Origin: Bacteroidota bacterium
GTDB lineage: Bacteria > Bacteroidota > Bacteroidia > Chitinophagales > BACL12
Reading direction: 5' to 3'
Assembly (NCBI GenBank): GCA_016706255.1
Contig: JADJJZ010000006.1
Location: 486,022-550,021, forward strand
DNA length: 64,000 nt
The notes below the pieces were generated by a model. That model was given only the letters and a program-made list of their open reading frames with translations. It was not told where the DNA came from and searched no databases. How positions within the stretch are numbered: position 1 is the stretch's first letter; each line of letters starts with the position of its first letter. Of this stretch, positions 5,741 to 60,553 are shown one piece after another. The position numbers and the translations under genes were made by a program.

Positions 5741-5749
5741 GAGGAGATA

Positions 5750-7730: not shown

Positions 7731-7813
7731 AAAAAATAAAAACCAGATTAAACTTTCGAATTTACGGAAGTGGAAGCTTGTTTGAACAAATGTGCAAATG
7801 ATAGTTTAAACCT

Positions 7814-7850: not shown

Positions 7851-7866
7851 AAAAAATAATTAAACA

Positions 7867-8415: not shown

Positions 8416-8454
8416 CATTAAATCATAAAACCCAATAATACAGAACCCTAAACA

Positions 8455-8958: not shown

Positions 8959-9289
8959 TGCAGTTGCGCTTAGTGAACAAATGCGGGTAATACCACTCGA
9001 AAATTATATTATGCTTTCGCTGATATTATTCAGCATTGGCGTAATGGGTATTTTAATGCGCAGAAACCTGATCGTTGTTTTTTTAAGTATCGAATTAATG
9101 TTGAATGCCATCAATTTAATGGCTGCAGCATTTTCATCTTACCATAACGACCCGCAGGGACAAGCATTTGTATTTTTTATTATGGTGGTGGCAGCAGCAG
9201 AAGTTGCTGTTGGTTTAGCCATGCTCGTAATGATTTACAGAAATACAAAATCAATCGACATTAATTCATTAGATAAACTAAAATGGTAA
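8951..9289 (+). CDS. nuoK: NADH-quinone oxidoreductase subunit K
   Basis: 112 aa, 3 TM, typical LSIELMLNAINL segment. Overlaps the nuoJ 3' end. Confidence 0.9.
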   Translation: MDNAVALSEQMRVIPLENYIMLSLILFSIGVMGILMRRNLIVVFLSIELMLNAINLMAAAFSSYHNDPQGQAFVFFIMVVAAAEVAVGLAMLVMIYRNTKSIDINSLDKLKW

Positions 9290-9370
9290 TCCGTTTACGG
9301 AATAAAAAATAAAAATAATTACCGGTTTAAGCACTGAAAAGCGATTACACCGAATTAAAAATTAAATAAA

Positions 9371-11266: not shown

Positions 11267-11269
11267 TTC

Positions 11270-12733: not shown

Positions 12734-12739
12734 GTATAA

Positions 12740-15169: not shown

Positions 15170-15194
15170 AATTAAATAATTTGTCTGCAGTTGC

Positions 15195-15300
15195 TCTAGC
15201 CCGGATAGTAGTGAAAACTGCTTATGAGGCACGAATAAGCAGTTGCAACGAATAGCCGGAACGATTGTGCGGGTATAGAAAAAGTAGCTCGCTCCAAAAA
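15195..15300. repeat. Diverged member of the GC-rich intergenic repeat family (copy A)
   Basis: Shares CTAGCCCGG ... GTAG.G.AAA ... AGCCGGAACG with the copies at 18500-18624 and 60787-60905. Internal hairpin CTGCTTAT/ATAAGCAG. Confidence 0.4.
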
Positions 15301-43010: not shown

Positions 43011-43285
43011 AAGTAGTTGATTGAATACCGGCTGTCCGGTAAAAAAAGTACCTTTGCGCATAAGTTTAGTTTTTGGTCGCAAATCAAAACTAACACTTAT
43101 TGGGAGTTCTTCGGAGCTCCCTTTTTATTTATTATTATTTTTTACCGGACAACAGTGATGTACCAATGTGCAAATGGAACAGCCGGATTTAGAGTAAGAT
43201 TTTCATACGAAGCTCCGTTGGGAGCTATAAAAAATTAATTGCTGCTGTGCAAATTGAGCAGCCGGAGAATGCCCAATGTGCGGAT

Positions 43286-43440
43286 ACCAATGGAACAGCC
43301 GATTTTGAGTAATCATTTCATACGAAGCTCCGTAGGGGCTGACCCATGTGTCTGCCCAATGTGCTTCAAACCTGATAATTTGCTAATGTGGCAACCTCGT
43401 TGACTGCTGTTCGAACAGCCGATTTTGAGCACGATTGTCC
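43286..43440 (+). repeat. 155-bp direct repeat, copy 2
   Basis: See 31493-31647. A partial third core lies at about 43170-43225 and a diverged core at about 41780-41830. Confidence 0.9.
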
Positions 43441-43604
43441 TCTAACCTCCGAACCCCATCAGCTAATTTGCTAATCGGCTAATTTGCTAATTAACTAATG
43501 TGTCTCCACGTCAACTAATTGGCAAGCAGCCAATTATAAGCATGATTGTCCTCTAACCTCTGAACCCCATCAGCTAATTTGCTAATCAACTAATTTGCTA
43601 ATTA
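43433..43604 (+). repeat. Two 61-bp direct repeats with CTAATTTGCTAAT low-complexity motif
   Basis: GATTGTCCTCTAACCTC(C/T)GAACCCCATCAGCTAATTTGCTAATC..CTAATTTGCTAATTA at 43433-43493 and 43544-43604. Confidence 0.85.
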
Positions 43605-43610
43605 AAAGTA

Positions 43611-44457: not shown

Positions 44458-44465
44458 GGTTATTG

Positions 44466-44536
44466 GTTATGACGGTTTCGGGCTTTGCTATGGTCGACTT
44501 TTGAAACCAAAAACTGTCTCCCAGCACCATCATTAA
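44466..44536 (-). repeat. attC-like site (short, degenerate)
   Basis: Minus strand: TTAATGATGGTGCTGGGAG ... AGCCCGAAACCGTCATAAC. The arms are mutually complementary with bulges. Confidence 0.4.
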
Positions 44537-44853
44537 TTAATTAATCAAATTTTTTTTTTATACTGCCTGCTAACAAAGGCAAACCAATATTAGCAGGCAT
44601 TATTTCTATCCTTTTATAAATTTGTCGATTTTTCTTTTGTAAACATACCGATTGTTGTAAAACCTTTGCATTTTCTTCAATATCTCCGTTTTCTTGTCAA
44701 AGTGTGCATGCGCATTTGGTCATTTACAAAAATATTTATTTCGTCTATGCTGTCTGAAACATAAAAGTCAAATATGTTTCTGTTACCACCAAAAGGATAA
44801 AGCGATAGATGCTTACTAGTCAATTCGTTTTTTGGGATTTTTTACAAATCCAA

Positions 44854-45264
44854 TTAAAAAGTCCGCATGGTAAATATTTTATTACTGATTGTGTCCTGAA
44901 ACCGTATACTGAACCATTCTTGCTGTTCACCCCTCCAGTCAAACCATTTGATATAAAGTGTGTCACTGTGACCTGTTGAAGAAATTGTCTCAACACGGTT
45001 GTGATTATTAGTTGTGTCGAAAGTCAAAAAATATTTTTGATTTGTTTCAGTAAATACACCTTCTCCATACCAATATTGCATATCATCAGTACCACTATAT
45101 TGTATGAAAGTCCCAAAGTTGTCAGATTTGTTTTTTTAAATAAAAATATAATTGTTTGAAAACATTGATGCGTTCTCCTGTAGGTAAATAGTTGTGTCTT
45201 GCGCGAATAATTGCCCAATGACAGCCATGAATAATATTGTAAATATGATATTAAGTCGTTTCAT
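44854..45264 (-). pseudogene. Cassette ORF, secreted hypothetical, disrupted
   Basis: Signal peptide MKRLNIIFTILFMAVIGQLFAQ, then a stop inside an A-run near 45135. Coding-like frames continue down to about 44600. Confidence 0.45.
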
Positions 45265-45275
45265 TTATTAATGAC

Positions 45276-45367
45276 TGCTGACGGTTTAACACTTTGCGTT
45301 TTGAAAGCACTTCACTATCTTCCTCACAAACTTAATAAAAATTTCTACACTTGCTGTGCGGTTAGAA
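45276..45367 (-). repeat. attC-like site
   Basis: Minus strand starts TTCTAAC (45367-45361) and ends AAACCGTCAGCA (45276-45282). The next ATG is 11 nt downstream. It shares the ACGGTTT arm with the sites at 44466, 46630 and 59360. Confidence 0.45.
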
Positions 45368-45398
45368 TTTTTATCACTTCCATATTTTTTAATGAGTT

Positions 45399-46163
45399 TT
45401 AATAATGGAAATACTTTTCTCTCAATTGGTTTATCCAACGTTTTTCTTTATTGTCAGACTGCGCATTTGCGATATCATTTTGATCGTCTGCATGATTATT
45501 CAATTCTAAATCAAAACTTTCGTTTTCGTCTGGTGGTTGTTTCAAGTCTGCACCACCTTTGTGTGCAAATTGAATATAGTTTTTTGGTGGTGTAGGTAAT
45601 TTACTTTCACATTCTTTGAACAGAGATTTACCAGTAGAGGTAGAATGTCAGTACTACTGTTAACGAAATCCAAAGTTGATTTGTTTGCTCATAAGTCATG
45701 GACTTGTCACAAACACAACATTTTACAGTGTCGCTAAAATACCTAACTGGATTGTCTTTTAATGAGGGAAATTCCATTCTGTTTTCCAATTACCAACCAA
45801 AGCTCTAGTGCTTACTCTGCTGTGTTTAAGATTTTTACACCTTGTAATTTCATAAGGAAACCAATTTTAATTCATATGAAGTATATGGATCGAAATATTC
45901 AAGTAATTCCATTTCACCAATTTCCGGTGGAATACGTTTTAACTTACTGCCATAAAGCCAAACCTTTTTAACTTTTTTTAGTTTTGATATTGTCTCCGGT
46001 AATATGTTTATTTGGGCAAACAATTTTTCTCCAGGCTCTTCTACGGGGAAAATTCGTCACTGTTTTCTGCCGCAACCTTTTCAACATAATCGCAAAGTTT
46101 TTTCCAGGCAACAGAATTTCTGTCTTGAATATCATGCTCTATTTTGGACATATTTTTAACCAT
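45399..46163 (-). pseudogene. Cassette ORF: leucine-rich-repeat protein, several frameshifts
   Basis: ...LPETISKLKKVKKVWLYGSKLKRIPPEIGEMELLEYF... and ...FPSLKDNPVRYFSDTVKCCVCDK... are read in shifting frames. Confidence 0.55.
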
Positions 46164-46199
46164 TGTTTGTTTTTGCTTGGCAATGCGTCTATCCTTGTT

Positions 46200-46272
46200 A
46201 CTAAAGTTTTGGCGCTTGGCGAAGAATCGTATTTCAAAGCTATAATTCGTTTGCTTTTTTTTATTGTTACCT
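46200..46272 (-). repeat. attC-like site (truncated member of the TTTTGGCGCTT family)
   Basis: The stop TAA of the upstream ORF lies inside AGGTAAC. The plus-strand arm ACTAAAGTTTTGGCGCTTGGCGAAGAA resembles ACGACGTTTTGGCGCTTGACGAAAAA at 56543. Confidence 0.4.
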
Positions 46273-46612
46273 GTCAATTATTTTTATGTCCATTGATTCA
46301 CAATAACTTCGAATATATTCTTCTGTCCATCTATTTCCGTATTTTTGTCCAAGGCTTTGTGACACTTTTATATTATTGTCTTCAATTTCTTTTGTCATAT
46401 TACAACCCACACATTCTATTTTAAAACCATATTTTGTCTCAGGATGGTCAAGATTACAAAATGGACAACCGTCGCCCACATAAAATATATCAATGCAATA
46501 TTTTCGAGCGAATCCTTATTGTTTTATGCACTGTACTATCCGTCTGCCCATAACTACTTTGGCTAAGTGACAGCAATGTTGCGGTCAAGAATATTGTTGT
46601 CCACTTTGTCAT
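46267..46612 (-). pseudogene. Cassette ORF: secreted Cys-rich protein, one frameshift
   Basis: Signal peptide MTKWTTIFLTATLLSLSQSSYGQ starts 17 nt after the core at 46630-46636. The C-terminal 70 aa are in ORF 46267-46479. Confidence 0.5.
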
Positions 46613-46629
46613 TGTCGTTTTTGAATTGG

Positions 46630-46759
46630 TGCTAACGGTTTCAGGCTTAGCGTTCGTGTGCTTTTAAAAGCGAAAATTTTCTGAATTACCAAAGTTAATT
46701 AATTGCACAAATGTTTCTATGTGCACTGTTTACCCAATAACGCAAACCCCATATTAGGC
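46630..46759 (-). repeat. attC-like site
   Basis: Minus strand: GCCTAAT-ATGGGGTTTGCGTTATTGGG ... CGAACGCTAAGCCTGAAACC-GTTAGCA. It begins 4 nt after the stop of ORF 46764-47078. Confidence 0.6.
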
Positions 46760-46763
46760 GCAG

Positions 46764-47078
46764 TTAATTCCTTTTGTCTCCGCATGCAGCACAGAATGTC
46801 GCTTGTTTTGTCCTATATGGTTTGCCACAGCTTTCGCATGGTGGTCCATACTTTTCTATTCTGTGGTGCATTATTGCATTTGGCTCAGTTTCCTGAAAAC
46901 CTGTTACTTCAAAATAGTATTTCAAAAGTTCTTTAAATCGTTCTGGTTTATTGCTTAGACTGACCCCACTATTATTCATTCCTTTTCTATAAAGTAGATA
47001 GGCCTTTTGAAATTCATCTTCGTCAAGCATAGGAATTTCCATTTTACAACGCCAACACCAAAGTTTTTCATTCTTCAA
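46764..47078 (-). CDS. Cassette ORF: small zinc-ribbon protein (hypothetical)
   Basis: 104 aa, intact. CWRC ... CESCG ... CAACG cysteine pairs. Confidence 0.55.
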   Translation of the reverse strand: MKNEKLWCWRCKMEIPMLDEDEFQKAYLLYRKGMNNSGVSLSNKPERFKELLKYYFEVTGFQETEPNAIMHHRIEKYGPPCESCGKPYRTKQATFCAACGDKRN

Positions 47079-47325
47079 TTTCCATTTTAGGTGCAGTAAT
47101 TCTCATATTTCAAGTATTATATCCAACACACCCTGTAAGGCGAAGTTAATGTCTTTCCCAGTTTTTTATGTTGGCTACTAAAATTTCAAATTCGATAATT
47201 TTCGTATGGTCTACTGAATAGTCTTTTTGGAAAATTATTTTGCCATTAGCGAACAATATTGGATTTACAAAACCTTTTCTGCAATAGATATTTTGCATGT
47301 TTCCTGTTTATTAAATGAACTAAAG

Positions 47326-47580
47326 TCAGTGCAGTCTTTGTTCAGCGCCTTCGCTAAGGTATTTGTCGAAGTCAACCTTTTTCCAAAGGTCATTTTCGGA
47401 GATAAAGAATTCTAATTTCTCTGCTTCTTGCTTTTTGACAAGCTCAAAGTCTTTAATTTCTTCGCTTGTTGACGAGCCTTTCGCAAGGTAGTTGGTGATT
47501 GTTTGGATAGTTGCTCCAAACCTAACTTCGCCCTTTCCTGAAAAGAGATTTTGTAAATCATTTTTGATGCTTTTATGCAA
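47326..47580 (-). CDS. Cassette ORF fragment (hypothetical; possible decayed kinase-like gene continuing to about 47145)
   Basis: 84-aa ORF ending ...YLSEGAEQRLH. A further 50-codon ORF (MQNIYCRKGF...) follows in another frame. Confidence 0.35.
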   Translation of the reverse strand: MHKSIKNDLQNLFSGKGEVRFGATIQTITNYLAKGSSTSEEIKDFELVKKQEAEKLEFFISENDLWKKVDFDKYLSEGAEQRLH

Positions 47581-47640
47581 GACTCAAAGTAAGCACATTT
47601 TTTAATAAGTGCAAATGCCGATAGGTGGCGGTGAAATAAC

Positions 47641-47753
47641 CGGTAACGTATTGCAGCTACAAGTTGTGCCGCCATCCGTGAAGTTAAATGGTATAAGTCC
47701 ACCAAAACTTACAATACCGAAATGCGCGGCATAACTTGTCGGTGCTGTTAGGC
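47641..47753 (-). repeat. attC-like site
   Basis: Minus strand: GCCTAAC-AGCACCGACAAGTTATGCCGC ... GCGGCACAACTTGTAGCTGCAATAC-GTTACCG. It begins 5 nt after the stop of ORF 47759-48058. Confidence 0.85.
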
Positions 47754-47758
47754 GTAGT

Positions 47759-48337
47759 TTATTTAAATACGGGTTCAATGTCGTCGATCGTCCAATGTTG
47801 TCCGAGCTTACTTAATTGATATTTGTAATGATAGTCCGAAGGGAAATTAACTAATATTTCAGCAGAATTGGCGTCCTTTTTAAGAACGTCAAAATTAATT
47901 TTGTCCAACTCAGAAAGTCCGGGGTCTTCTTGACTGAATAAGATAAAATCGTATTCGAATCCTTCAGGCGGTCCGTCATTTGCTGGATGATCTTTAAACT
48001 GCTTGTCACACTTTTTAAAGTAGTCACGCCATTTGTCCGAATATTTATTTGAAAGCATGCCTGTCTCGGTTAGCGTCTTAAGATATTTTCTGTTGCAGGA
48101 AAGTTTAGCGTAAAATTTAGTTGAGTCCCATTCAGCGCCTGAATTACCGAAACTAAGTCACTGGCTAAATTAGTCCCATTGTCCTTGTACCATTTGAGGA
48201 AATTTAAAATTGTAGTCTCAGGGCTTGATTCGGCCTCAGATGTCACAAGTCGTCGACGCAGAATTTGTATTGTCTGCAGTCCTTGAACAAGAAAAAAATG
48301 TCCAGATTAATAATATGAAAATTGATGTCCTCTTAAT
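47759..48337 (-). pseudogene. Cassette ORF: lipoprotein (DUF3828-like), disrupted
   Basis: The lipoprotein signal ...SIFILLIWTFFSC starts immediately after the core at 48341-48347, with no canonical ATG. Frames shift before the intact 99-aa C-terminal ORF. Confidence 0.5.
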
Positions 48338-48340
48338 TAC

Positions 48341-48471
48341 GCCTAACGTTATGCAGATTTGCGACGGCGGGTCAGGCAACCGAAAATCTTTAATAAAATA
48401 CGAAGTTTTAGGTTATCGAAAATTAATCTGAGGATGGCGTCGCCCCGCTGGCGCAAATGTGCTTGTTAGCG
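48341..48471 (-). repeat. attC-like site
   Basis: Minus strand: CGCTAAC-AAGCACATTTGCGCCAGCGGGG ... CCCGCCGTCGCAAATCTGCATAAC-GTTAGGC. The TAA stop of ORF 48466-48714 lies inside the inverse core. Confidence 0.85.
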
Positions 48472-48763
48472 GTTGTTTTTCTTGATTAAAATTCTTGCAA
48501 AATGCACCGCCATTATTATTAAGATTTGTATAGGTAAAGCAATAAAAAACACAGGCCCAGCAAATATAAAGGGAGAATTTTCATTATCAAAAATAAAGAG
48601 AGCCAAAGGATAACCAATATTCCAAACAAAATGATTTGGATCAGAGCCTGTATACCTAAATTGCGGCACATTAAATTCAGGATAAAAGTCTATAATCGCA
48701 AAAAATAATTGCAAAAATGATTAACCATTTTAACCAGGGCTTCCTTTTGCTTTTCACTATCAT
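48466..48763 (-). pseudogene. Cassette ORF: small membrane protein, one frameshift in a T-run
   Basis: MIVKSKRKPWLKWLIIFAIIF... joins the 82-aa ORF (…FAIIDFYPEF…) after a 1-nt shift. Confidence 0.5.
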
Positions 48764-48904
48764 ATTTTTAATTCTGCTTCTCTATACAAAATTGGATTTA
48801 ATTTATGTTTATTTGGTTAATAAAATAAATCTCCAATCGTCTCATTCGATTTGCCGTATTAGTTGAAGGATTCATTTCATAGTACCCATATTGTTCTGAA
48901 TTAC

Positions 48905-49036
48905 CGCTAACGTTTTGCAGCTACAAGAAGTTGGCGATTTCGGAGACGAAAACTGTCTGCCAGCACTGAACTTGATACGAAGCACAAAGCTTCATTTAAC
49001 CACTGAACCGCCAATTTCTTGTAGGTGCTGTTACAG
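48905..49036 (-). repeat. attC-like site
   Basis: Minus strand: CTGTAAC-AGCACCTACAAGAAATTGGCG ... CGCCAACTTCTTGTAGCTGCAAAAC-GTTAGCG. The central TTAAATGAAGCTTTGTGCTTCGTATCAA is shared with 56543-56672 and 57385-57515. Confidence 0.85.
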
Positions 49037-49215
49037 GCTGGCGTTTTTTCTGTCGTGGTTTTTCTGTCCATTGTTATTGTCGTTTTTTGTGCGTTGGTTA
49101 GAAAGCTCTTTTGCAATTTTAGGTTTGCGAGTCGCTTGTGCGAATTGCAAATGTGCTTTTGGAGCGAAGGACCTTCCAAAATATAATGGTTAGTTAATTT
49201 CTTTTGCAATATCAT

Positions 49216-49995
49216 TCAGCCAACCAGAAGAAATGGCATAGCGTCTAAGGCCAAGAATTCAATTTCAGAATTTTTAGAGTCAATTACAAAATTTCTTATT
49301 GTCGTTTCAATAGCTATTTTTTTATCTTGGTCATTGTCATAAGAAAGAGCAACGTCTCTTAAATGTTCTCTAAATCTATCTAAAAGACTCCGTCTATTGT
49401 CGTTTAAGTCCTTTCTATCAATTTTGCACTTTTCGATTGTATAAGCAAATCTCACATTATCAGATTCAATAATTCCATTAACTTGAAATCTAATTTCACC
49501 AGAAGAATCGGTTATTTCAGGATTCACCATTTTTGGCAACTCAACTAAATCATAACTAGCAGAACTATTATTAATACTTCGCAAATTAGCTTCAGTGTTA
49601 TTAAAAGTAACTGCGGTACCTTCTAATTCAAAATTCACACCTTTGTTTTGGTTACATGTCGGACAAGATAACATTAAGTTGTCCCAAGAGAATGCAAGCC
49701 AATAGTAAGTAGCTTTAGGTCTATAATGTTCAACGTGATATTGCTCAACTTTTTGCTCACAAAAAGCACATGTACCTTTATAGATTGAAGTTAATCCGCT
49801 GCGGATTTCGGCCAACTTATATCTATCATTAAAAGGGGAAGTATCATTGTATGCTCCCGCATTAATAACAGACATCCTTTTTTCATGGGTTGTTCTGGAT
49901 TTTATTGGGACTCTTACTTGTCCTGGAAATAGATCAATAAACGCAGGTATTAGAGAAGCGGGAATTGCTGTCAGGTCTTTTTCTAGCTTGATCAT
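49216..49995 (-). CDS. ptuB: HNH endonuclease, PtuB-like (TIGR02646-type)
   Basis: 259 aa. CAFCEQKVEQYHVEHYRPK ... WDNLMLSCPTCNQNKG HNH core. Its start overlaps the ATPase stop by 4 nt. Confidence 0.75.
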   Translation of the reverse strand: MIKLEKDLTAIPASLIPAFIDLFPGQVRVPIKSRTTHEKRMSVINAGAYNDTSPFNDRYKLAEIRSGLTSIYKGTCAFCEQKVEQYHVEHYRPKATYYWLAFSWDNLMLSCPTCNQNKGVNFELEGTAVTFNNTEANLRSINNSSASYDLVELPKMVNPEITDSSGEIRFQVNGIIESDNVRFAYTIEKCKIDRKDLNDNRRSLLDRFREHLRDVALSYDNDQDKKIAIETTIRNFVIDSKNSEIEFLALDAMPFLLVG

Positions 49996-51778
49996 TTTTT
50001 TCCTAATTCATCATTAATAATTCGTTGAATTAATTCATCTATTTCATCGTCTTTGATGAATCCCTTGCCAGCCGCTTTTTGCTTTTCAAGTTCAACTTCC
50101 AGTTTTTTATTAATCCTGTATAACAAATAAGTTTCACTTGTATCAGAATTATTATCCTCAGTATTCATTCTAGAATCATCTAATCCAAATAGCGGAGATG
50201 TTAGAAGTGAGTTAATCATCAAATGATCTAAATTTTTGCGTAAATAAGGATCACTCACTCTCGTTTTACCGTCTTCTTTGTTTCGATAAACTCTAAACAT
50301 AATTGCATCTTCAGATGCTCCTTGAATGATTGTTGGGCTATGAGTAGTGAAAATAAACTGAACATTTGGAAATAGTTTTCTCAATTTGCCAATTATTACT
50401 CTTTGCCATTTTGGATGTAAGTGTAAATCAATTTCGTCTAATAAAACTATACCCTTTAAATCTGTAGGCGTATTTCCTTCGCCAGCATTTTTATTCAATC
50501 TATATAACAAGTCAGACACAAAAATTAAGATACTTTTGTAACCTTCCGATAGTTGATCAAATGTCAGAATCGTTCCTTTCTCCTTAAAAGTTACACCGCT
50601 TCCTTCGATCTTTATTTCAACATTTTTTTCCAATAAATCGAAAAACATTTTTTCAAGTAGTTCGACAGGGAATGAATTTGGTAGTTCTTTAATTTCACCA
50701 ATTGAATTATTTGCATCAAGATTTTTTTCTAGTTCTAATAATTTTTGGTCTTTTAACCATGAAACGGGATTCACTAGTGTTTGCTCGCTATCGAAAAGCG
50801 ACATAAAACCATATTCTTCTGGTTTATCAGTAGAATATCTTCCCGATGAGTTCCATAAGCAAAGAAATTATTCAAAATATTCCCTTTTTTGGGATTGTAT
50901 TCTTGGCCTTTATCATCAACACCAGACAGTCTGATGTTTTTATTATTTCTTATAATATCTGCGGCTTTTCCCGTTCCTTCAAGATCTGTCTTTTCGGTGA
51001 TAGAGTTTCCGTTAAAGGCAAGATAAATTCCCATCAGTATTAAAGATTTCCCATCTCCATTTTCTCCTAAGAAATAAATCTCCTTTGCTTTGTTGAAATT
51101 CAGATTTGTTTCTTCAACCGAAAAGAAGTCAGCAATCTCGACTTTTTCTATATAATTACTTTCATTGTCAATTACACCCTCCAGCCAAGACCTAAATTGA
51201 TCTTCAGAAATACTTAGGGCTTTATGGAAATTATTTGAAAAACATATTCTATAAAAATCATCGTCTCCGATTGCAACATTTGTAAACCTTGAGATGCGCT
51301 CAAGTAAAACTTGTTTAAAAAGTTTACCGACATTCGTGTTCTGTAATATTGGAGTAAAATCGTATGGAACATCTTGTGTACGCCTGTAAATAGGTTTAGC
51401 TGCCCCAGATTCTATTAATGCACTTCTAATATTTGTATATTGTTTCCCTGACTCGATTTTAAAAACACCTTTCATATCCCCAGTAGAATACTTCGAGGCG
51501 AATTCATCAACGATTTCCCCATGTGTAAAAAGTGTTGCGAATAAAGCAAAGAGTTTTTTTTCGTTAGGGTAATTCTGAATTTCAATCCAATAGCTTGGAA
51601 TAGGATCTTCAAGTGAATTAATTCCAAGAAAAGATTTAAGAATAGCTTCGTTAATAATAGCTTTTTTGCTTTTGAAATCTTCTATTATTTGCAAGCTTTC
51701 TATCACTTCCATAACTTGGACAATATCATACTTTGTCCAAGATGTTCTTTGTCTTTTGAAATCAACTTCAATACTCAT
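49992..51778 (-). pseudogene. ptuA: PtuA-like ABC/AAA_15-21-type ATPase with a ~220-aa uncharacterised N-terminal domain; one frameshift
   Basis: Walker A FLGENGDGKSLIL (ORF 50774-51778). Q-loop region, Walker B plus signature VLLDEIDLHLHP and THSPTIIQ (ORF 49992-50804). The frames join near the G-run at about 50855 (…AYGTH / GRYSTDKPEEYGFMSLFDSE…). Confidence 0.75.
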
Positions 51779-51781
51779 GAC

Positions 51782-53015
51782 TTATTTGCGTTTTGCGATT
51801 ATAAGATACTCTTGAACACTTCTACTTTTATCATCTTTTCTACCCATTATGTGTGTTTATATGCAACTTCTTTATAGTCTACATCATAATTATTACCCAG
51901 ATTCTTTTTAGCAATATCAATAATTTCATCTAAACTAATCATCCCCGTATTGCTATAGCTTAAAATTAAACTTGAGTTCTTAATTTTAATTTTTGCAAAC
52001 ATTTTTGCAAAAGCAGGTTTCACTTCTGTTCTCTTGCAGAAAGGGGATTGATGTCGATCTGATACCGACCTTTAAAATCAACTTCTGGATAATCATATTT
52101 TACTAATGTTTCCAACGCATGATAAAATCTTGAATAGTGGACGAAAGCATATGGCGGATCAGCATATACCAAAGAATTGGGTTCAATTTGGTCGAGACAT
52201 TCAAGATAATCTAACGATGTAACCTTATGATTTAAATTGTTCTTATCAAGATAGCCATGCAATATTTTGAACTTATTTATGAAATAAGGCAACATTTCCT
52301 TTTGTCTATAAATTAGAATGTCTGTCTTTGATGACAAGTTTGTCGCATCACGATATTGTGCATAATGACCCGTACTTTGAGAATTATATGACATCGCAAA
52401 CATTAGACTAGAGGATAACATAATGTAAAGGTGTATTTTTATATTCGTCAGCGACTTTACGAAGTGCATCTATCCATAAGCATTGCTGATACGACCAGTA
52501 AGTTCCAGAATAATATTTAATGAAAAGATGGTGTGATAAATTACCAAAATTAAATTCCATTAAATCTTGCTGTTGTTTTTCCAGTTCTACAAATTCTTTT
52601 ATCGTTTTCTTTTCTGAATAGGAAAAAACAAAATCGGGATATTTTTTTTTGACGGATTTTACATATTTAGTAGCCTTTTCAACAATTTCATCTAATATAT
52701 TTGATGGATATTTATCCCACTCGTAATTCGATAAATATGTATTTGCAGTATTGCCGAATATTCTTGAATGTCGTTGGAATGAATAGGAATTAACTTTCCT
52801 AATGCCCCTGATAAAATACTTGTTCCACCAAATAAGTCACACAACTTACCTTCTCGATATGTATCATTAATTGATTCTATAACAAAATCTAAGATATTTC
52901 TTTTTGATCCCATATATTTTATAATATGAGGAACACTCCTGTCGTATTTAGAAAGTAAATCAGGTTTCAAATTTCCTTCTAGAATTATAATGTCTAATGT
53001 TGCTGCTCTGCTCAT
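51782..53015 (-). pseudogene. DNA adenine methyltransferase (D12/Dam family), at least 3 frame disruptions
   Basis: N-terminal YMGSKRNIL and DLFGGTSILSG (SAM site), VYADPPY catalytic motif, and C-terminal ...ILSYSNTGMISLDEI...VQEYLIIAKRK in a third frame. The stop is 4 nt before the ATPase ATG. Confidence 0.8.
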
Positions 53016-53020
53016 TGTTT

Positions 53021-53242
53021 TTATTGAGTGTATTCTAATCTTTGTAGGAAAAGTGGTTCCCTCACATCAACATCTAGAACTTCTGCGATTTCAAAAAGTG
53101 TTTCCATTGTCGGTTGCATTTGGTTTGTACACCACTTAGAAACTGTAGTCCTGTTTTTGCCTAATTCTTCAGCAAGCCAGTTATTGGTTTTTCCCTGTTC
53201 CGCTAAAACAGCTTTAATCCGATTACACGCCTTTTTCTTCAT
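53021..53242 (-). CDS. XRE-family HTH regulator (controller-protein-like)
   Basis: 73 aa. ...KTNNWLAEELGKNRTTVSKWCTNQMQPTMETLFEIAEVLDVDV.... The stop is 6 nt before the methyltransferase start. Confidence 0.75.
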   Translation of the reverse strand: MKKKACNRIKAVLAEQGKTNNWLAEELGKNRTTVSKWCTNQMQPTMETLFEIAEVLDVDVREPLFLQRLEYTQ

Positions 53243-53265
53243 AAAAGAAGTCTTTTACATTAATT

Positions 53266-53286
53266 ATTCTGCAAAATAAGCAGAAT
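53266..53286. promoter_or_regulatory. Candidate operator (C-box-like inverted repeat)
   Basis: ATTCTGC-AAAATAA-GCAGAAT, 24-44 nt upstream of the HTH gene start. Confidence 0.4.
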
Positions 53287-53370
53287 CTGACAACTCTATT
53301 TTGTTCACATTCAGTCTAAAAGCTAAATAATATGCTTAATTAGTATCATAATTCGTCTATTGAGCATAAA

Positions 53371-53676
53371 ATGAATATTTTGAAAAAAATAAAGACTTGT
53401 TTAAAAGTCTATCGCAACAAAAAAATGCTCTTTATGAAAGCTAAGAACAAGAAAAAACTTATTCTATCTCTGATCAAAGATGATTTAATAAATGCCAAGC
53501 TAGTAAATGGTTTGAATGAGATCGGTCTGAATGCAGATAATTATTCTCTGCACCTGAGCGATACAATTTTTAACCTCATGAGATTTGAGGATAACGAGGA
53601 AACGGAAACAACTTTCGAACGATATATGGAGTTGGCTAAAGAGATCAATGTTCATAGATATTTCACAGTCTCATAA
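53371..53676 (+). CDS. Hypothetical protein (only plus-strand ORF in the cassette region)
   Basis: 101-aa ORF. Probable start at an internal Met (MLFMKAKNKKK...). Confidence 0.4.
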   Translation: MNILKKIKTCLKVYRNKKMLFMKAKNKKKLILSLIKDDLINAKLVNGLNEIGLNADNYSLHLSDTIFNLMRFEDNEETETTFERYMELAKEINVHRYFTVS

Positions 53677-54320
53677 GCCTATGGATGATTTAGCTTTACA
53701 AATTTATACTGAAATATTGTCTCGAAAGCCCAATGATTAATATTATTGCGGGTGGGTGATTTGGCTCTTTTGATTTTGCCTTTTGTGTCGGCTCGTGCGT
53801 TGGGGGCAAAAGCAAATGTGCCAAATGTGTGTCGGCAAAGTCGAAATGTGTCGGGTTGCAATAAATTGTCTACGGAGATAAAATAAACATTTTTGTCGGA
53901 ATGTAAGTCGCCCGATTTTTAGTAGGAATTGTCAAGGTTGCACTGTCGTCCGACGCTTGCCCTATAACTTGATTATTTGAGAAGTGTTCCCCAAAAAACC
54001 TCTCCAAATCCTACTTCAGTGCTTGAATCAGTAGGTTTAACTTTTTAAAACTACCTCTTATTTTTTTATTCAACCATTTAATAGCTACAAATTAATTTGA
54101 CCTTAATCCGAAATGTTTTACCACCTCAACGCATTCAACCCTACCACATCTTTCAATCTCTAATCCTGGAGCTAAATGCTTTATCAGTATTTTAAAAAAT
54201 TACCGCTCCAAATTCACGGAAAACCGTTAATCTTAAAATGTCACATTTTTAAAATTACGAACGCAATAAAATCAATACTTTTGGGCAAATGGGATTCATT
54301 TTCGCCACTTTACCATGTCA

Positions 54321-54432
54321 CACTGAAGTAGAAGCTGTTTTTTGCACCGCAAAAAATCCACTTCACTTAAAATAGAACATTTATCCTTCCAACTTTACTT
54401 AAGTGGCAGCAAAAAACAGCTTCACTTTAGTG
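54321..54432. other. Long imperfect hairpin in the ORF-free zone
   Basis: CACTGAAGTAGAAGCTGTTTTTTGC (54321-54345) pairs with GCAAAAAACAGCTTCACTTTAGTG (54409-54432) with 1 mismatch and 1 bulge. An inner 6-bp stem CCACTT/AAGTGG is also present. Confidence 0.6.
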
Positions 54433-54804
54433 CAAGCACTCAACCCTTTTCATTCCAATAATATTCCCGATTTCTATTTATTTCCATGCATCTTCATCTT
54501 TCTTTATATTTTAAAGAAACTTTCGAAGACTCCGTCGAAGTTTATGGGTTCAAGATGCTCATCATTAAACTCGGTAATGTCATCAATTTTATTTGTCGTG
54601 TTAAATAATACAATGTCCCAGCTCATATTACTGTAATTTTTGAATTTGTTAAAAATGGCACAGTCGTTTTTTTATTTGTCACTTGAAATTTCTTCTCTAT
54701 CTATTAATCCTTCTTTATTCGTTGGCTCTTCTTCGTTAGCAGATCTATCAAATAAATTTCTTAGTCTTCTAATTTGCCTTTGCCTATTAAAAGTTTCATC
54801 ACAG

Positions 54805-55241
54805 CTAAGTTGGTAAAAAAGCTAATATCCAAATTCCGATTGTTGATAAAGTTGACAAGCCATAAGCTGCAGAAATCATGCTAATCAACATAAATGAAAT
54901 AAATCCGAGCCATGAATAATAACTTGCTTGTTTAGATTTTAAAACATAACCGTCATCTCTAAAATTTTGCCTTACAGCAAAGGAAACCAAATAAAAAAGA
55001 ATAGATTTTTTTGAAGGAAATTCAAGTCATCAACAATGTTATATCTAATGCGTTTGACTGCTTTCTCAATTTGGTCGTTTTTATAATTTTTAATATCGTC
55101 CTCTGAAACATTTCTTTTTGATATTTCTTCTAAAGCAACAGTTACTGCTGTTTCGGTATAGCTAAATTTTTCATCAAGAATTTCTAATAACTCTTGAGTT
55201 GAAAGTTTTGAATAAGTTTCTTGTAATTCTTCTCGTGTCAT
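54805..55241 (-). pseudogene. Cassette ORF: membrane-anchored hypothetical, one frameshift
   Basis: ORFs 54972-55241 and 54805-54990 join across an A/T run (…DDLNFLQK / …VSFAVRQNFRDDGYV…). Confidence 0.5.
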
Positions 55242-55342
55242 AATAAAATGGTTAACTTTTGGAGCTAAAGAAAGTGCATAATAAAAACTTCCTAACTGTC
55301 TAATTGAACTAAAGGTATAAAATGTTCCAAGTTCATCGCAAG

Positions 55343-55420
55343 TGCAAACAGTGTCTTACCGCTGAAAATTTGCGCATGCAATTTACACTTACCTCCGCAT
55401 TTTTTTAGCCTGCGTTACCA
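55343..55420 (-). repeat. attC-like site (short)
   Basis: Minus strand: TGGTAAC-GCAGGCTAAAAAAATGCGG ... GCGCAAATTTTCAGCGGTAAGACACT-GTTTGCA. It starts 1 nt after the stop of the upstream ORF. Confidence 0.4.
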
Positions 55421-55421
55421 G

Positions 55422-56013
55422 CTAACGTTTATTTTTTCTAGCGTCTGCTCGCATTCCTAATTCCATTTCAAGTTGTGCTTGCCAAAATCCGTCTTCGGAT
55501 GTTGTTCGGTTGTCAGCAAGTTTCAACCTTTGTTTTAGTGTTTCAAATTGTTCGTCAGTAAAGTTGGAGTTTATGAAAGCGTCTTCGCCATTTTCTTTTT
55601 GAACAGTTAAAACAAAGTCTCGGTAAATTATTAAACAATTTGTCAACGTCTTGATAGAACAATTAAAAAACCGAGATGAAAAATAATCTTCGTGGTCAAG
55701 CCATTCTATTTCGTCATTTTGTCTGTATTAATAACTATCGCGTCACCGTCAGCGCATGAACCAATTACTACATACTTTTCGTATTCAGATTCAAGAAAGT
55801 CGTATTGGGTAGTCAGTTTATTTATACCTTCATAAAGATCATTGGTGTTTTTGCAAACGATAAAAACGGTGCTGCCTCAACCGGTAGTCCAATGTTGGTT
55901 AAAAAGTCTATTGTGTCAGGCTTGAGATTTAAGTTTCTAAGACTGTCTTTGTCGATTGGAGAAAGCTTGTCGCCTGTTGATGTCCAAATATTTTTAAATT
56001 GGTCTGAAGTCAT
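55422..56013 (-). pseudogene. Cassette ORF: SUKH-superfamily (SUKH-4-like) immunity-type protein, multiple frameshifts
   Basis: ...FLTNIGLPVEAAPFLSF..., ...YVVIGSCADGDAIVINTD..., ...WLDHEDYFSS... and the C-terminal ORF 55422-55646 lie in different frames. ATG is 11 nt after the core at 56025-56031. Confidence 0.55.
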
Positions 56014-56024
56014 TTTACGCTTGC

Positions 56025-56154
56025 TGTTAACGTTTGCGTTTCTGCAGCGGTGACTTTCGAAGCCGCGGCCTGTCCCACGAAACAAAAGTGTTGAACGAAG
56101 ATAAAACTTTAAATCAACAGGTCACAGCACCAATGCAGAAACATACTGTTATAC
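56025..56154 (-). repeat. attC-like site
   Basis: Minus strand: GTATAAC-AGTATGTTTCTGCATTGGTGCTGTGAC ... GTCACCGCTGCAGAAACGCAAAC-GTTAACA. Confidence 0.8.
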
Positions 56155-56348
56155 GCAGTTAATTTATACGTCCCACTTGTTTTGAAACTTGTATATACTT
56201 GTCAGACATTATAAAATCTACACAGTCGTTAATCATTTGTCTTAGAGTCCTTTTTCATTTTCAATTATTTTTGTCCCCAGTCCGCACCATTTATTGCAGA
56301 AATAATTTTTGATTCTAACGCTGACCGAATTCCTATTTCTTTTTTTGT

Positions 56349-56531
56349 CTAGTAGCAAACTTCAGGGTAAGGCAAATTGTCGCGTTTCTCTAAGTATGCT
56401 TTTTGCACAAATTCTATTTCAAAAATTTTAGATTCTTTGTCCATCATTAACAATGTCACTGAACCACCGTCCATCCAAGCATGAACCTCCTCAATAGTCA
56501 ATTGTCCTGTAGGGTTGAATAATCTATCCAT
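56349..56531 (-). CDS. Cassette ORF (hypothetical)
   Basis: 60 aa. ATG is 11 nt after the core at 56543-56549. The TAG stop is followed by 27 further sense codons in frame. Confidence 0.4.
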   Translation of the reverse strand: MDRLFNPTGQLTIEEVHAWMDGGSVTLLMMDKESKIFEIEFVQKAYLEKRDNLPYPEVCY

Positions 56532-56542
56532 ATATTAATCAA

Positions 56543-56672
56543 GCACGACGTTTTGGCGCTTGACGAAAAAGCGGATTTCGAATCACTAAATTGTCTGGCA
56601 GCCCTATTTGATACGAAGCACAAAGCTACATTTAAGTAAAGAACCCACTTTTTTGCCAAATGCAGGATATGT
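56543..56672 (-). repeat. attC-like site (inverse core degenerate)
   Basis: Aligns along its length with 57385-57515 (…TTAAATGTAGCTTTGTGCTTCGTATCAA…GCCAGAC…AAATCCGCTTTTTCGTCAAGCGCCAAAAC-GTCGTGC). Confidence 0.6.
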
Positions 56673-56676
56673 GCCT

Positions 56677-57375
56677 CTATTCGTTGCATATGTCAATTAT
56701 TTTATGACTTTTTTGTTTCCAAGTATTTGTCCTTATGTTAAGTTGGTAAATGTGTTCACCTAAACCACAAACGCCTGCAGGCACGTACGTAATCAAAGTG
56801 TTGCTCTTATTTTTTATTTTTGACGGAAAATAAGTCATTGAGTCCGTCAAGAATTTATTTAAAGTGAATTTATTGTCTATGCCTTGCAAGTAATAGCTAT
56901 AAAATGTCCCACCATTTCCACCAGAATCATTGATTACTGCTATGTCGTCTTTATTATCAAAGTTTAGGTCAGCAACTATTAGGTCGCCATAATAATTATC
57001 AACTACTTCTTTGTCGAGATTAATTTTGGTAGAGTATGAAATAACATTTTTACAGTTCATAAAAACGTCCCTGAAATAAAAGTGCGAGCTTACTGATATA
57101 TTATCAATCACTTTCTTTGTGGTCTTGTCTGTAAGGAACAATTTAACAATACAGGAGTCATGATGCTCTTTGGAATTTGTGTGTCGCTCAAAATTAACTT
57201 TAATGTCAAACTGTTCAGATAGGTTCAAGTGCTCACACGCTGTACTTGTAAAGGAATCGTATATTGACATAGGTTTAGTCATAGAAATTATTGAATCAGT
57301 ATTTTCAAACTGTTTAGATTGTTTTGTTGAACAACTGTAAATTAATATTGTTAATATGAATAGTGTTTGTTTCAT
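56677..57375 (-). CDS. Cassette ORF: lipoprotein with FG-GAP/VCBS-like motif
   Basis: MKQTLFILTILIYSC lipobox starts 9 nt after the core at 57385-57391. DLNFDNKDDIAVINDSGGNGG motif. The ORF-track start at 57465 lies inside the attC-like site and is probably spurious. Confidence 0.6.
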   Translation of the reverse strand: MKQTLFILTILIYSCSTKQSKQFENTDSIISMTKPMSIYDSFTSTACEHLNLSEQFDIKVNFERHTNSKEHHDSCIVKLFLTDKTTKKVIDNISVSSHFYFRDVFMNCKNVISYSTKINLDKEVVDNYYGDLIVADLNFDNKDDIAVINDSGGNGGTFYSYYLQGIDNKFTLNKFLTDSMTYFPSKIKNKSNTLITYVPAGVCGLGEHIYQLNIRTNTWKQKSHKIIDICNE

Positions 57376-57384
57376 TTTAGTGGC

Positions 57385-57515
57385 ACATAACGTTTTGGCA
57401 CTTAGCACAAAAGCGGATTTAGAAGCACTGAATAGTCTGCCGGCACTTACCTTACTAACAAGCACAAAGCTTCATTTAACCGCTGATCCCGCTTTTTGCT
57501 AAGCGCCTGTTAGGG
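57385..57515 (-). repeat. attC-like site
   Basis: Minus strand: CCCTAAC-AGGCGCTTAGCAAAAAGCGGG ... CCGCTTTTGTGCTAAGTGCCAAAAC-GTTATGT. Confidence 0.85.
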
Positions 57516-57575
57516 TAGGTTTTATAAATACAAAATTTATATTAGAAAATAAGGCTGGGTCTTGAATTGCAATCA

Positions 57576-57819
57576 TTACAACTCAGATTTTTCCCAGAAA
57601 ATTTCTAATTCATTATTAGCGCAAAATGCTCTTTCAAGTATGTTCACCAACTCATTATCTGCTCCGTTCTCACGGAATGTTCAATATGCTTAGGTCTAAC
57701 CAATATTCCTGATCATCTTTACTTTCTTCCTCAAGTTGATCAATTAGAAATTGTAACTGCATTTCATTAATTAAGCCAATTTCCTGGTTTGTCTCTTTGT
57801 TTTTTAATTTGTACATCAT
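57576..57819 (-). pseudogene. Cassette ORF: small acidic protein, one frameshift
   Basis: MMYKLKNKETNQEIGLINEMQLQFLIDQLEEESKDDQEYWLDLSILN then a shift to ...ENGADNELVNILERAF..NNELEIFWEKSEL. Confidence 0.5.
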
Positions 57820-57968
57820 TAAATTAGATTTTAAAATTATTGTTTGTTTCGTTTTTTAGAGTGGTCTCTGGACTCCACTATTATTGTTTGTGGAAAATTA
57901 AATTCATGAATTGTCGATCTGAATTGTTAGTCGAATATTTCTTGCCTCAATATGTCTTTTAAATTTGC

Positions 57969-58097
57969 ACTTAACGTTTGTGTTTATGACGGCAGGTTTT
58001 CGAAGAGCGTCACTGCCCCATTTTGCTGAACGAAATTAAGAAAACAAAACTTAAAACCTACACATCACCCCAAGCTGGCATAAACATTTTGTTACCT
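57969..58097 (-). repeat. attC-like site
   Basis: Minus strand: AGGTAAC-AAAATGTTTATGCCAGC ... CCTGCCGTCATAAACACAAAC-GTTAAGT. Confidence 0.8.
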
Positions 58098-58110
58098 GCT
58101 GTTTCTAGCA

Positions 58111-58763
58111 CTACCAAAATTTCCAAAAAGGTCTTTTGTCGTCCTTTATTTCCGATAATATTTGAACAACTCTTTCTTCCCCCCAATCCTGGTCATCAGG
58201 TATCTTCTTCCAGTCAATATCTTTTATTTCTATCCGTTCATCGGCTGACCCCGACCAATCAACTTTGAATCCATTCTTCCTTAGTTTTCAATAATTTTTT
58301 GCTATCAGAATCGCTTCATTGTTCTCCTCAGCTGTTAAAGCCAAGATACAAGCTCCTTGATTCTGGATCAACCGCTCTTCCCAAATCTTGAGAATGATAA
58401 TAGCAAAAACCTACTGCTTTAATTCCAAGCTCATCAAGTCTCTCTATTGTCTCCATACAATCTTCCTCACCGTCTGATCTTGTAAAACCCCACATTGTGC
58501 AAACAAACAATTCTTTCAGATATAAGCTCATCGAATATTTTAGCAAGCCGTTCGAAGTCGGTAGGATGTGTCCAGTGAAGACTTTCACTTTGATGTTTTG
58601 AATACCTATCCGATATTTTATCTTAAACCAAACCCTCGTCAAAATCACTTTCGTCATAAAACATTTCTCGAATACTTTCAAAAGTTCGTCTTCATTCTCA
58701 AAGCCAAACTTTATGTCGAGCTCTAATTGGTCAATGGCTTCTTTCTTTATTTCACTCTGTCAT
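58111..58763 (-). pseudogene. Cassette ORF: DUF6891-like (immunity-type) protein, several frameshifts
   Basis: ...GFTRSDGEEDCMETIERLDELGIKAVGFCYYHSQDLGRAVDPESRSLYLGF... then ...AEENNEAILIAK... and ...KNGFKVDWSGSADERIEIKDIDWKK... in other frames. Confidence 0.5.
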
Positions 58764-58789
58764 ATCTAGTGGCTAATCAATGAAATAGC

Positions 58790-58922
58790 TGGTAACGTTA
58801 TAGATTTGCGATAGACGGGCGGTTTTCCATTACAAATGTTCATTCTAAGATACAAACTTTCTGTAACCACAAAACCGTTCAGGAGCGGTAAGCCCCGCCT
58901 ACGTTAAAATGTGCTGTTATGC
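58790..58922 (-). repeat. attC-like site
   Basis: Minus strand: GCATAAC-AGCACATTTTAACGTAGGCGGGG ... CCGCCCGTCTATCGCAAATCTATAAC-GTTACCA. Confidence 0.8.
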
Positions 58923-58932
58923 GTAGTAGTCC

Positions 58933-59319
58933 TCAGTCCCGATTGGCGTCAATTATTTTTTTAACGAATTCTCTTCCATTAGTCAAACTTTCATCACCTC
59001 GAAATTCACTTGTTTCGATTGTTCCGTCATTAAAGACTTCTATTTCGAGTCTTGCCCCAACAATTGTTACACAAATCATTACGGAATTGTCTCTGGTACG
59101 TTCTAATTGATAGTAAATTTTGGCGCTGTCAAGTTCTTCCAATATCTAATAGAGTGGGTGATTGCTTTTGATGGTTTTCAGTTTCTTTATTATAAAACCA
59201 ATCACATAGTCTGGCTGAGTAGTAATGGAAAGGTCTTTGTTTTTGACAAGCTCTTTCAAAGCCTTCTCAACAGTTTTCCACTCTTTCAAAGATTTATATT
59301 CAACGTATGGTGACTTCAT
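58933..59319 (-). pseudogene. Cassette ORF (hypothetical) with an in-frame TAG, or two short ORFs
   Basis: MKSPYVEYKSLKEWKTVEKALKEL...SNHPLY-TAG(59146-59148)-ILEELDSAKIYYQLER...; a continuous frame of 128 codons. Confidence 0.45.
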
Positions 59320-59359
59320 GATTTACAATTTATTCGGATACGGATGGTCTTCCTTTACG

Positions 59360-59491
59360 CGCTAACGGTTTGCGGCTACCCGAAGGGCGGGACATTTACC
59401 ACAAAACTTGATTTTGAAAACTAATGTTTGATTAACCACAAAACTGTCCTTGGAACACAAAACCCCGCCTTTTGGGTAGGTGCTGTTATGC
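59360..59491 (-). repeat. attC-like site
   Basis: Minus strand: GCATAAC-AGCACCTACCCAAAAGGCGGGG ... CCCGCCCTTCGGGTAGCCGCAAACC-GTTAGCG. Confidence 0.85.
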
Positions 59492-59637: not shown

Positions 59638-59728
59638 GTCGCTACGTTGTGGAAATAAATAATTCTTGAATTTGTATTAATGTGTCCGCCAAATTCTGTG
59701 CAGAGTAATAAACTGTCACGTTAGCTAA
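59638..59728 (-). repeat. attC-like site (short, degenerate)
   Basis: Minus strand: TAGCTAAC-GTGACAG ... TTCCACAAC-GTAGCGAC. The GTT core has lost one T. Confidence 0.35.
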
Positions 59729-60174
59729 ACTGTATTCTTTTGCTTTTCAAGTTCTTGCAACTGAATTTTTAATTGTCCGATTATATTATAGAAGTCGTAA
59801 ATTAAGTTTATTGAGTCAGAGGAAAGGTAAAGCATATTGTCTGCAATGTCTGTGTGGCATTTGCTTACAGAATTGTCAAACTTTTTCAATGCGTCATTTA
59901 TACAAGAAGTGTCAACACACGTTCCTGATAATGAAACGTGCAATTGTTGAACATCAAAAAGTATTTTGGATAAAGAAGCATAAACTTTTTTCTCCTGTTC
60001 ACGAATATCGTCTTTGGATTTATACTGCAAATCGAGATTTTTTTCGATTCTCTTTAATTGTCGGTTATTGCGATTTGTTAACCACAATATTCCCAATGGC
60101 AGAAATACGCCAGTCAAAATAATATTTACAAGGCCAGGGTTATTGTCAAGAATGTGTTTGAGTGTTTCGTTCAT
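59725..60174 (-). CDS. Cassette ORF: N-terminal TM plus coiled-coil protein (hypothetical)
   Basis: 149 aa, intact. TM helix LVNIILTGVFLPLGILWL. Starts 5 nt after the stop of ORF 60179-60553. Confidence 0.5.
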   Translation of the reverse strand: MNETLKHILDNNPGLVNIILTGVFLPLGILWLTNRNNRQLKRIEKNLDLQYKSKDDIREQEKKVYASLSKILFDVQQLHVSLSGTCVDTSCINDALKKFDNSVSKCHTDIADNMLYLSSDSINLIYDFYNIIGQLKIQLQELEKQKNTV

Positions 60175-60178
60175 TGGT

Positions 60179-60553
60179 TTAAATATTTTTTCTGCGAATT
60201 ACTGACCACCTCGGTTCAGGCACCATTTCAAAATCTTTGCTATGCGTTAAAAAGTAAAATGTCATTTCCGTTGAGCCAATATTTGTTATTCGTATTAAAG
60301 TCATTCCGTTTAATAAATGGTCGTGACAATTTTGACTTGATACTTTTAATTTATTCCAAGAAATACTATTGTCGGCTGTACCTTTTATTTCATAATTCTC
60401 AACAACACCATTTATTGAAGTTGAAAGGTCAATTCCGTTTCGATTTGTAATAAAAGTGGTCGTGCCATTTATTGAAAAGAAATACAACTTTGCTATTTCA
60501 ACTGCCAATTTACCAACGCCGCTTTTTTTTTCCAGTGTTTGATAAAGTGTCAC
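60179..60553 (-). CDS. Cassette ORF: small PD-(D/E)xK-like (DUF3883-like) protein
   Basis: 124 aa, intact, GTG start. ...NGIDLST...ENYEIKGT... fits D...ExK spacing. Confidence 0.4.
   Translation of the reverse strand: MTLYQTLEKKSGVGKLAVEIAKLYFFSINGTTTFITNRNGIDLSTSINGVVENYEIKGTADNSISWNKLKVSSQNCHDHLLNGMTLIRITNIGSTEMTFYFLTHSKDFEMVPEPRWSVIRRKNI

Follow-up and report, generated by a model that had tools for sequence, protein, structure and literature searches.

We analysed a 64-kb stretch of contig JADJJZ010000006.1 (hereafter the window), which belongs to a Chitinophagales-like Bacteroidota metagenome-assembled genome (MAG). Our focus is the interval 54805-59330, where an original prediction had seen gene cassettes dominated by immunity-protein-like products, in the manner of the orphan-immunity arrays known as recombinase-associated acquired interbacterial defence (rAID) clusters. 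The interval makes up the 5' third of a chromosomal array of about 15 kb (44465-59491, minus strand) whose cassettes are laid out as an open reading frame (ORF) followed by an imperfect hairpin of about 130 nucleotides (nt), the attC site. We conclude that this is probably an integrase-less attC cassette array, that is, a cluster of attC sites without an integron-integrase (CALIN), with mixed accessory cargo. The array is no dedicated store of immunity genes: only two genes, out of seven in the interval and about 17 in the whole array, come from families anchored to an immunity function, and the word 'dominated' was therefore an overstatement. What stands of the orphan-immunity idea is that at least two cassette genes, a SUKH-4 gene and an XAC2610-related lipoprotein gene, belong to immunity-associated families and have no toxin nearby; neither the predominance of such genes nor the likeness to rAID clusters was upheld.

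attC sites and cassette mobility

A covariance model of the repeats (R1) finds 11 sites in the window, all of them on the minus strand, with the same result under default filters and with filters off. When nine sites are aligned, 16 of the 17 stem pairs show compensatory changes, and the classical R''-L''/L'-R' hairpin beats shuffled controls in five of the ten sites that were folded (z-scores -2.3 to -3.9). The model also matches about 35 sites in independent arrays. Along the interval the sites fall between the genes, all on the minus strand. S1 (59358-59491; R1 90 bits, DNA fold z-score -3.0) closes, on the 3' side, the cassette that lies upstream of the interval, and S1 positions 59488-59417 share 93% identity over 72 nt with an attC that follows a Hachiman defence system in another array (L015, described below). 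It is followed by S2 (58788-58922; 72.2 bits), by S3 (57967-58097; 33.8 bits, E 3e-5), which belongs to the cassette of a DUF6891 gene, by S4 (57383-57515; 119.7 bits, z-score -2.3), by S5 (56541-56672; 97.9 bits), whose 5' (R'') end looks degraded and whose minimum-free-energy fold is no better than those of shuffled sequences, and by S6 (56023-56154; 89 bits). Beyond the interval, S8 (48903-49036; 133.6 bits, z-score -3.8) and S9 (48340-48472) lie further down the array.

The same units can be followed from one array to another. The DUF6891 cassette is found at 95% identity in three metagenome arrays (L001-L003), where S3 has been kept together with it and where another attC, sharing about 90% identity with S9 of the window, comes before it. 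In all three, the cassette and this foreign attC meet precisely at AAC|GTTACCAGC, where crossover canonically takes place. Cassettes therefore shuffle as units of ORF plus attC, with the crossover at G|TT of the R' box. Covariation of the stem pairs, the one-strand polarity of the 11 sites and this junction together identify the sites as true attC-type sites, as had been proposed from the sequence. Such cassettes are cut and pasted in related bacteria, the joint falling on G|TT within the box AAC|GTTA.

No tyrosine-recombinase motif appears in a motif scan of the 64-kb window, and tblastn of the window likewise finds no tyrosine recombinase (no E value below 3, with an approximate IntI1 query). 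Because no integrase lies next to the array, it is a CALIN and not a complete integron by the IntegronFinder definition (10.1101/2022.02.28.482270). It resembles known CALINs and sedentary chromosomal integrons (Cury et al. 2016; 10.1101/2022.02.28.482270) in its unidirectional ORF and attC units, its G|TT crossover, attC sites that are conserved in structure rather than in sequence, its mostly ORFan cargo and the lack of an integrase nearby. It differs from them in its Chitinophagales-like Bacteroidota host and in having an attC-bounded unit that spans 7 kb and contains several genes. For comparison, the Bacteroidetes highlights of the IntegronFinder 2.0 survey of RefSeq are only In0 elements and a single complete integron, in Salinibacter ruber (10.1101/2022.02.28.482270).

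Immunity families, a defence unit and other cargo

Every gene in the interval lies on the minus strand, as do all the cassette genes described here, and most are split by 1-nt insertions or deletions (indels). Broken reading frames were stitched by hand before family searches, and the stitched lengths agree with those of intact homologues for three products (219 amino acids (aa) for the DUF6891 protein, 197 aa for SUKH-4 and 128 aa for C1). Searched against Pfam and NCBIfam in this form, 11 of about 17 cassette products belong to no family.

The SUKH-4 gene (55422-56013) encodes 197 aa after the correction of two single-base deletions against L015. Its product matches Pfam PF14435 with 42.4 bits (E 1.1e-10, cut-off 25.5), the match covering positions 19-178 of the 179 in the profile. 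It shares 94% identity with a PF14435 protein of 197 aa whose gene is intact and has 144 homologues, PF14435 being present in nearly all of the 120 listed. The original call of a SUKH-4-like protein is thereby borne out once the frame is corrected. No toxin adjoins the gene in the window, nor does one adjoin its counterparts in L015, L019 and L020, and it is an orphan member of an immunity-associated family. In the literature we searched, no paper links SUKH or SMI1 proteins with integron cassettes.

The second such gene, whose family the original prediction had not called, is C4 (56677-57378), which is intact and codes for a lipoprotein. XAC2610, the protein for which its domain is named, is a lipoprotein inhibitor of XAC2609, the lysozyme-like effector of the X-type IV secretion system (X-T4SS) of Xanthomonas citri (PMC10933484). 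C4 is like XAC2610 in being a lipoprotein (lipobox LIYSCS, read by eye), in scoring above the curated cut-off for the XAC2610-related domain (NCBIfam NF047539, XAC2610_fam; 51.9 bits, cut-off 35) and in having the XAC2610 structure 4QTQ as its best sequence match in the PDB (E 0.058). It is unlike XAC2610 in that only about 85 residues match and that no cognate effector or toxin gene adjoins it, either here or beside its homologues in Emticicia and a Chitinophagaceae MAG. C4 too is an orphan member of an immunity-associated family, and from its sequence we regard it as a candidate periplasmic immunity protein or lysozyme inhibitor, which might act on an incoming peptidoglycan hydrolase.

The SUKH-4 gene is not a simple cassette. 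After it comes C7 (54675-55241), a frameshifted gene for a membrane protein of about 193 aa that travels with SUKH-4: it is 97% identical to the 193-aa gene that follows SUKH-4 in four other loci (L015-L018). Further down lie an XRE-type helix-turn-helix gene (53021-53242; Pfam HTH_3, E 6e-12), a frameshifted gene for a D12-class N6-adenine DNA methyltransferase (51847-53015; Pfam MethyltransfD12 on two fragments, PADLOC MTase_II) and a Septu anti-phage system (49216-51778). Septu is recognised by an AAA ATPase, PtuA (51778-49992; PADLOC 159.5 bits, Pfam AAA_21/AAA_15), adjoining an HNH nuclease, PtuB (49995-49216; 129.8 bits, Pfam HNH). Their coding regions share 4 nt; ptuA has a single frameshift and ptuB is intact. 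Since R1 finds no attC between 56023 and 49036 even with filters off, SUKH-4, C7, the XRE gene, the methyltransferase and Septu share one attC-bounded unit of 7 kb, with S6 as its upstream border and S8 closing it. In L015 the SUKH-4/C7 module (96% identical) is followed instead by Hachiman (HamA and a helicase), and defence systems thus appear to be swapped downstream of a fixed SUKH-4 module without an intervening attC.

A candidate attC between SUKH-4 and C7 (55430-55288) was dropped, having an R1 E value of 4.2 and no fold. The SUKH-4 stop codon falls within AAACGTTAGC (55420-55440), which resembles the R' end of an attC; the remainder of an attC site is undetectable around it, and it may be the remnant of a fused cassette boundary.

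Phage defence inside an attC-bounded unit has precedents in defence-carrying integron cassettes (10.1101/2024.07.02.601719; PMC12614218). Septu with a methyltransferase here, Hachiman in the sister array and the recurrence of nuclease and helicase domains across the attC family are all like them. The published cases differ in being from Proteobacteria (mobile integrons and Vibrio), and here the defence system shares its unit with SUKH-4.

The SUKH-4 family also occurs on a platform unrelated to attC arrays. In Flagellimonas marinaquae (CP092415.1; L020, positions 1900-12800), a split tyrosine recombinase (Phage_int_SAM_5 and Phage_integrase) precedes a run of about 15 small genes in one direction, among them Hfx_Cass5, DUF7957, SUKH-4 and TANGO2. 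A 17-nt intergenic repeat, AAGTTCAAATAAACGAT, is present at at least nine positions in this locus, which has no attC matches. Here, then, a member of Flavobacteriaceae has the same SUKH-4 family on a platform of rAID-like type.

Among the remaining genes in the interval is the DUF6891 gene (58111-58763), with 219 aa after the correction of about five indels against L003. Its product matches Pfam PF21831 with 156.6 bits (E 8.6e-46, gathering score 27) and is 94% identical to an intact 219-aa homologue (P0001), so that the DUF6891 assignment, made beforehand from the broken frame, holds. Placing it with the immunity-like cargo is not supported. Homologues in arrays lie beside RtcB, APH, GNAT, TPMT, DUF695, RES-Xre and SMI1_KNR4 genes; those outside arrays are solitary, among glycosidase and sugar-metabolism, methionine-synthesis and housekeeping genes, and in no context examined does a toxin adjoin one. 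An AlphaFold model from 44 sequences is confident (predicted local distance difference test score, pLDDT, 93.8) and matches no solved fold in the PDB (best E 0.14, TM score 0.16). The family is absent from the literature we searched.

C3 (57576-57819), the small acidic protein of about 80 aa, has one frameshift and belongs to a real, conserved family of proteins of about 78 aa, with 389 representative clusters at E<=1e-3. It had been listed among the immunity-like products, and that part found no backing: there is no Pfam or NCBIfam family, and a confident model (pLDDT 91.6) has no significant match in the PDB (best E 0.2). A match to a colicin E3 immunity protein (E 0.41, TM 0.32) is noise. 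Domain fusions of the family are heterogeneous and uninformative (glycosyltransferase, DinB, HisKA and DUF1269).

C1 (58936-59319; 128 aa) has an in-frame TAG at 59148-59146, at which position its homologues have E or Q. There are 13 of these, the full-length ones 128-137 aa long and none with a Pfam domain; C1 itself has no Pfam or NCBIfam family. No toxin neighbours its homologues in the contexts examined, and in two contigs C1 lies a few genes from proteins with a type IX secretion system (T9SS) tail, which is not conclusive. C5 (56162-56531), a frameshifted product of about 125 aa stitched from fragments, has no family in Pfam or NCBIfam, and neither does C7. Down the array, outside the interval, a leucine-rich-repeat (LRR) protein had been proposed at 45399-46163. 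The heavily frameshifted gene there (45400-46200) gives nothing in Pfam and only sub-threshold LRR-region matches in NCBIfam (best E 8.4e-6, 24.7 bits against a cut-off of 450), so that the LRR label is weak at best. Nine further cassette products down the array were scanned and gave one borderline match, FEKKY_dom in the product of 46612-46270 (27.3 bits, cut-off 26), and otherwise nothing.

The array is flanked on one side by a kdp operon, a histidine kinase and insertion sequence (IS) fragments, and on the other by panC and the glycogen synthase gene glgA. Exact protein matches to a Bacteroidota MAG, together with cluster relatives named Chitinophagales, place the host in a Chitinophagales-like Bacteroidota lineage outside the Bacteroidales; a Flavo-1 RNA (RF01705, 53.8 bits) at 15194-15266 fits a Bacteroidota origin. 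Two ORFs upstream of the first attC, at 59725-60553, are intact, lie on the minus strand (149 aa and 124 aa) and have no family. Between these and panC there is no recognisable attC, attI or integrase that would define where the array ends on its 5' side. The stretch 43160-43610, which separates the last cassette gene from the IS remnants, contains direct repeats in two sets; they measure about 100-115 nt, have GCTAATTTGCTAAT-type cores and bear no relation to the attC sites.

Possible decay or stockpiling, and the cassette census

The broken frames raise the question of whether the array is a decaying relic, in which the frameshifts and the nonsense codon would be real and most cassettes, SUKH-4 and DUF6891 included, pseudogenes. 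Nearly every cassette gene is broken, C1 with its TAG among them, several attC sites look degraded, and there is no integrase, CALINs having been proposed to be degraded integrons (10.1101/2022.02.28.482270). The damage, however, is not confined to the cassettes. ORFs are clean over 1-35 kb, kdpB (35116-37146) breaks from about 35.5 kb, integrity falls sharply from about 40 kb on, and a histidine kinase gene (40015-41535), an IS4/5 transposase gene and panC are split as well. Against homologues 95-96% identical in DNA, we count about five indels in DUF6891, two in SUKH-4 and deletions of 5 and 10 nt; most indels are 1-nt deletions, several of them in homopolymers, which is the hallmark of an unpolished consensus from long reads. 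Intact coding sequences remain in C4, C12 and PtuB. The frameshifts are probably long-read errors, left in the unpolished consensus of a strain-variable region, rather than decay, and we hold the relic explanation to be unlikely.

A second possibility is that the array is, after all, given over to stockpiling orphan interbacterial immunity genes, rAID-like in function and built on attC sites, with most of the unnamed cassettes encoding immunity proteins too. Several facts point this way. Two orphan immunity-family genes among seven in the interval are suggestive. SUKH-4 and C4 lie within 1.5 kb of each other, and two in about 17 genes is, by our informal estimate, above the expected genome-wide rate. 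A sister array (L003) holds an SMI1_KNR4/SUKH cassette, and the same SUKH-4 family sits in the recombinase-associated short-repeat array of Flagellimonas. Against it, neither the family nor the context nor the fold of DUF6891 and C3 gives a sign of immunity, SUKH-4 is joined in its unit by Septu here and by Hachiman in L015, and the window has no recombinase.

A census of cassettes from the same attC family speaks to this point more broadly. Seeding with a 20-nt pattern of one attC subfamily, which matched at least 120 metagenome contigs, we obtained 175 sites by covariance model in 80 contigs and, next to them, 171 non-redundant ORFs of at least 50 aa that end beside an attC on the same strand. 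Pfam assigns 115 families to the 150 longest of these, the commonest being Por_Secre_tail (7), ResIII (5), HNH (3), SWI2_SNF2, GmrSD_N and AAA_21 (2 each). No SUKH or Imm family has two or more members among the 150, whereas nuclease and helicase defence domains do recur. Among the 59 ORFs of immunity-protein size (100-212 aa) that were scanned over their whole length just one is SMI1_KNR4/SUKH, the others including Fic, GNAT, TPMT, Tpt1, HNH, OmdA and cupin; local hidden Markov models find SUKH-4 in 0 of 171 census ORFs and DUF6891 in one. From these counts we read the pool as diverse, its recognisable part leaning to nucleic-acid defence enzymes and secreted proteins and not to immunity proteins. 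We accordingly rate the stockpile explanation as improbable, a little more so than decay. As an observation in its own right, the T9SS C-terminal sorting domain Por_Secre_tail is the top Pfam family of the attC-adjacent ORFs (7 of 150, in L029-L108), and cassettes of these Bacteroidota arrays seem commonly to encode secreted proteins.

The comparison with rAID clusters themselves can be made feature by feature. A rAID-1 locus is defined by a 5' XerD-like recombinase that shares 44% identity or more with that of B. fragilis, a Bacteroidales host, homologues of Bacteroidales T6SS immunity genes and a GC skew, with at least two co-directional downstream genes of GC <=41%, skewed relative to the recombinase and the flanks (10.1101/471110). 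The array resembles rAID-1 (Ross et al., 10.1101/471110) in its co-directional, low-GC small genes (31-38%), its repeated intergenic sequences and its orphan members of toxin-immunity families. It is unlike rAID-1 in having no 5' XerD-like recombinase, a host outside the Bacteroidales, no GC skew against flanks of about 33-41%, repeats that are attC hairpins of about 130 nt, phage-defence genes interleaved with the rest and only the two immunity-family genes. The label rAID-like is thus not supported, the features that define rAID-1 being missing from this window.

That the locus might be an ordinary genomic island of small genes, whose repeats are no recombination sites at all, has in its favour only that the window lacks an integrase and is highly improbable in the face of the structure-conserving covariation, the strict strand polarity of the sites, the recurrence of one cassette in several arrays, broken each time at the R' box G|TT, and hundreds of same-family sites in metagenomes, always beside a same-strand ORF.

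Some points weigh against our preferred interpretation, an integrase-less array with mixed cargo. An integrase could lie elsewhere on the source contig of 1.15 Mb. The census takes the ORF next to each attC, from a minimum of 50 aa and from one subfamily seed, and is a sample rather than a full inventory. Immunity proteins are notoriously diverse, and profile searches could miss some among the unnamed cassettes; the structure comparison covered two of these, DUF6891 and C3, against the PDB.

Meaning for Bacteroidota cassette arrays

On our preferred interpretation the cargo is an accessory pool made up mostly of ORFans, the nameable part of which is related to conflict: an orphan SUKH-4 gene, an orphan XAC2610-like lipoprotein gene, and Septu with a methyltransferase and an XRE regulator. 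The two immunity-family genes presumably protect against foreign toxins. On present evidence the array is typical of those with mixed cassettes, a few of its genes being related to conflict; it offers a well-delimited example and no new principle.

A wider idea follows the SUKH-4 family across its two unrelated platforms, the attC arrays here and the Flagellimonas tyrosine-recombinase array with its 17-nt intergenic repeat. Environmental Bacteroidota attC arrays might be shared banks of conflict genes, in which SUKH-4 and XAC2610-like genes stand with anti-phage systems, convergent with the rAID-1 arrays of gut Bacteroidales. We consider this doubtful at present; if it is true, new immunity families would be found among the unnamed cassettes, in several of them. 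Should attC cassettes regularly carry orphan immunity genes, integrons would join in the defence against contact-dependent bacterial toxins, a role that would extend them beyond antibiotic and phage resistance, and the Bacteroidota, for which the IntegronFinder 2.0 survey of RefSeq highlighted few integrons, would hold a large untapped pool of cassettes.

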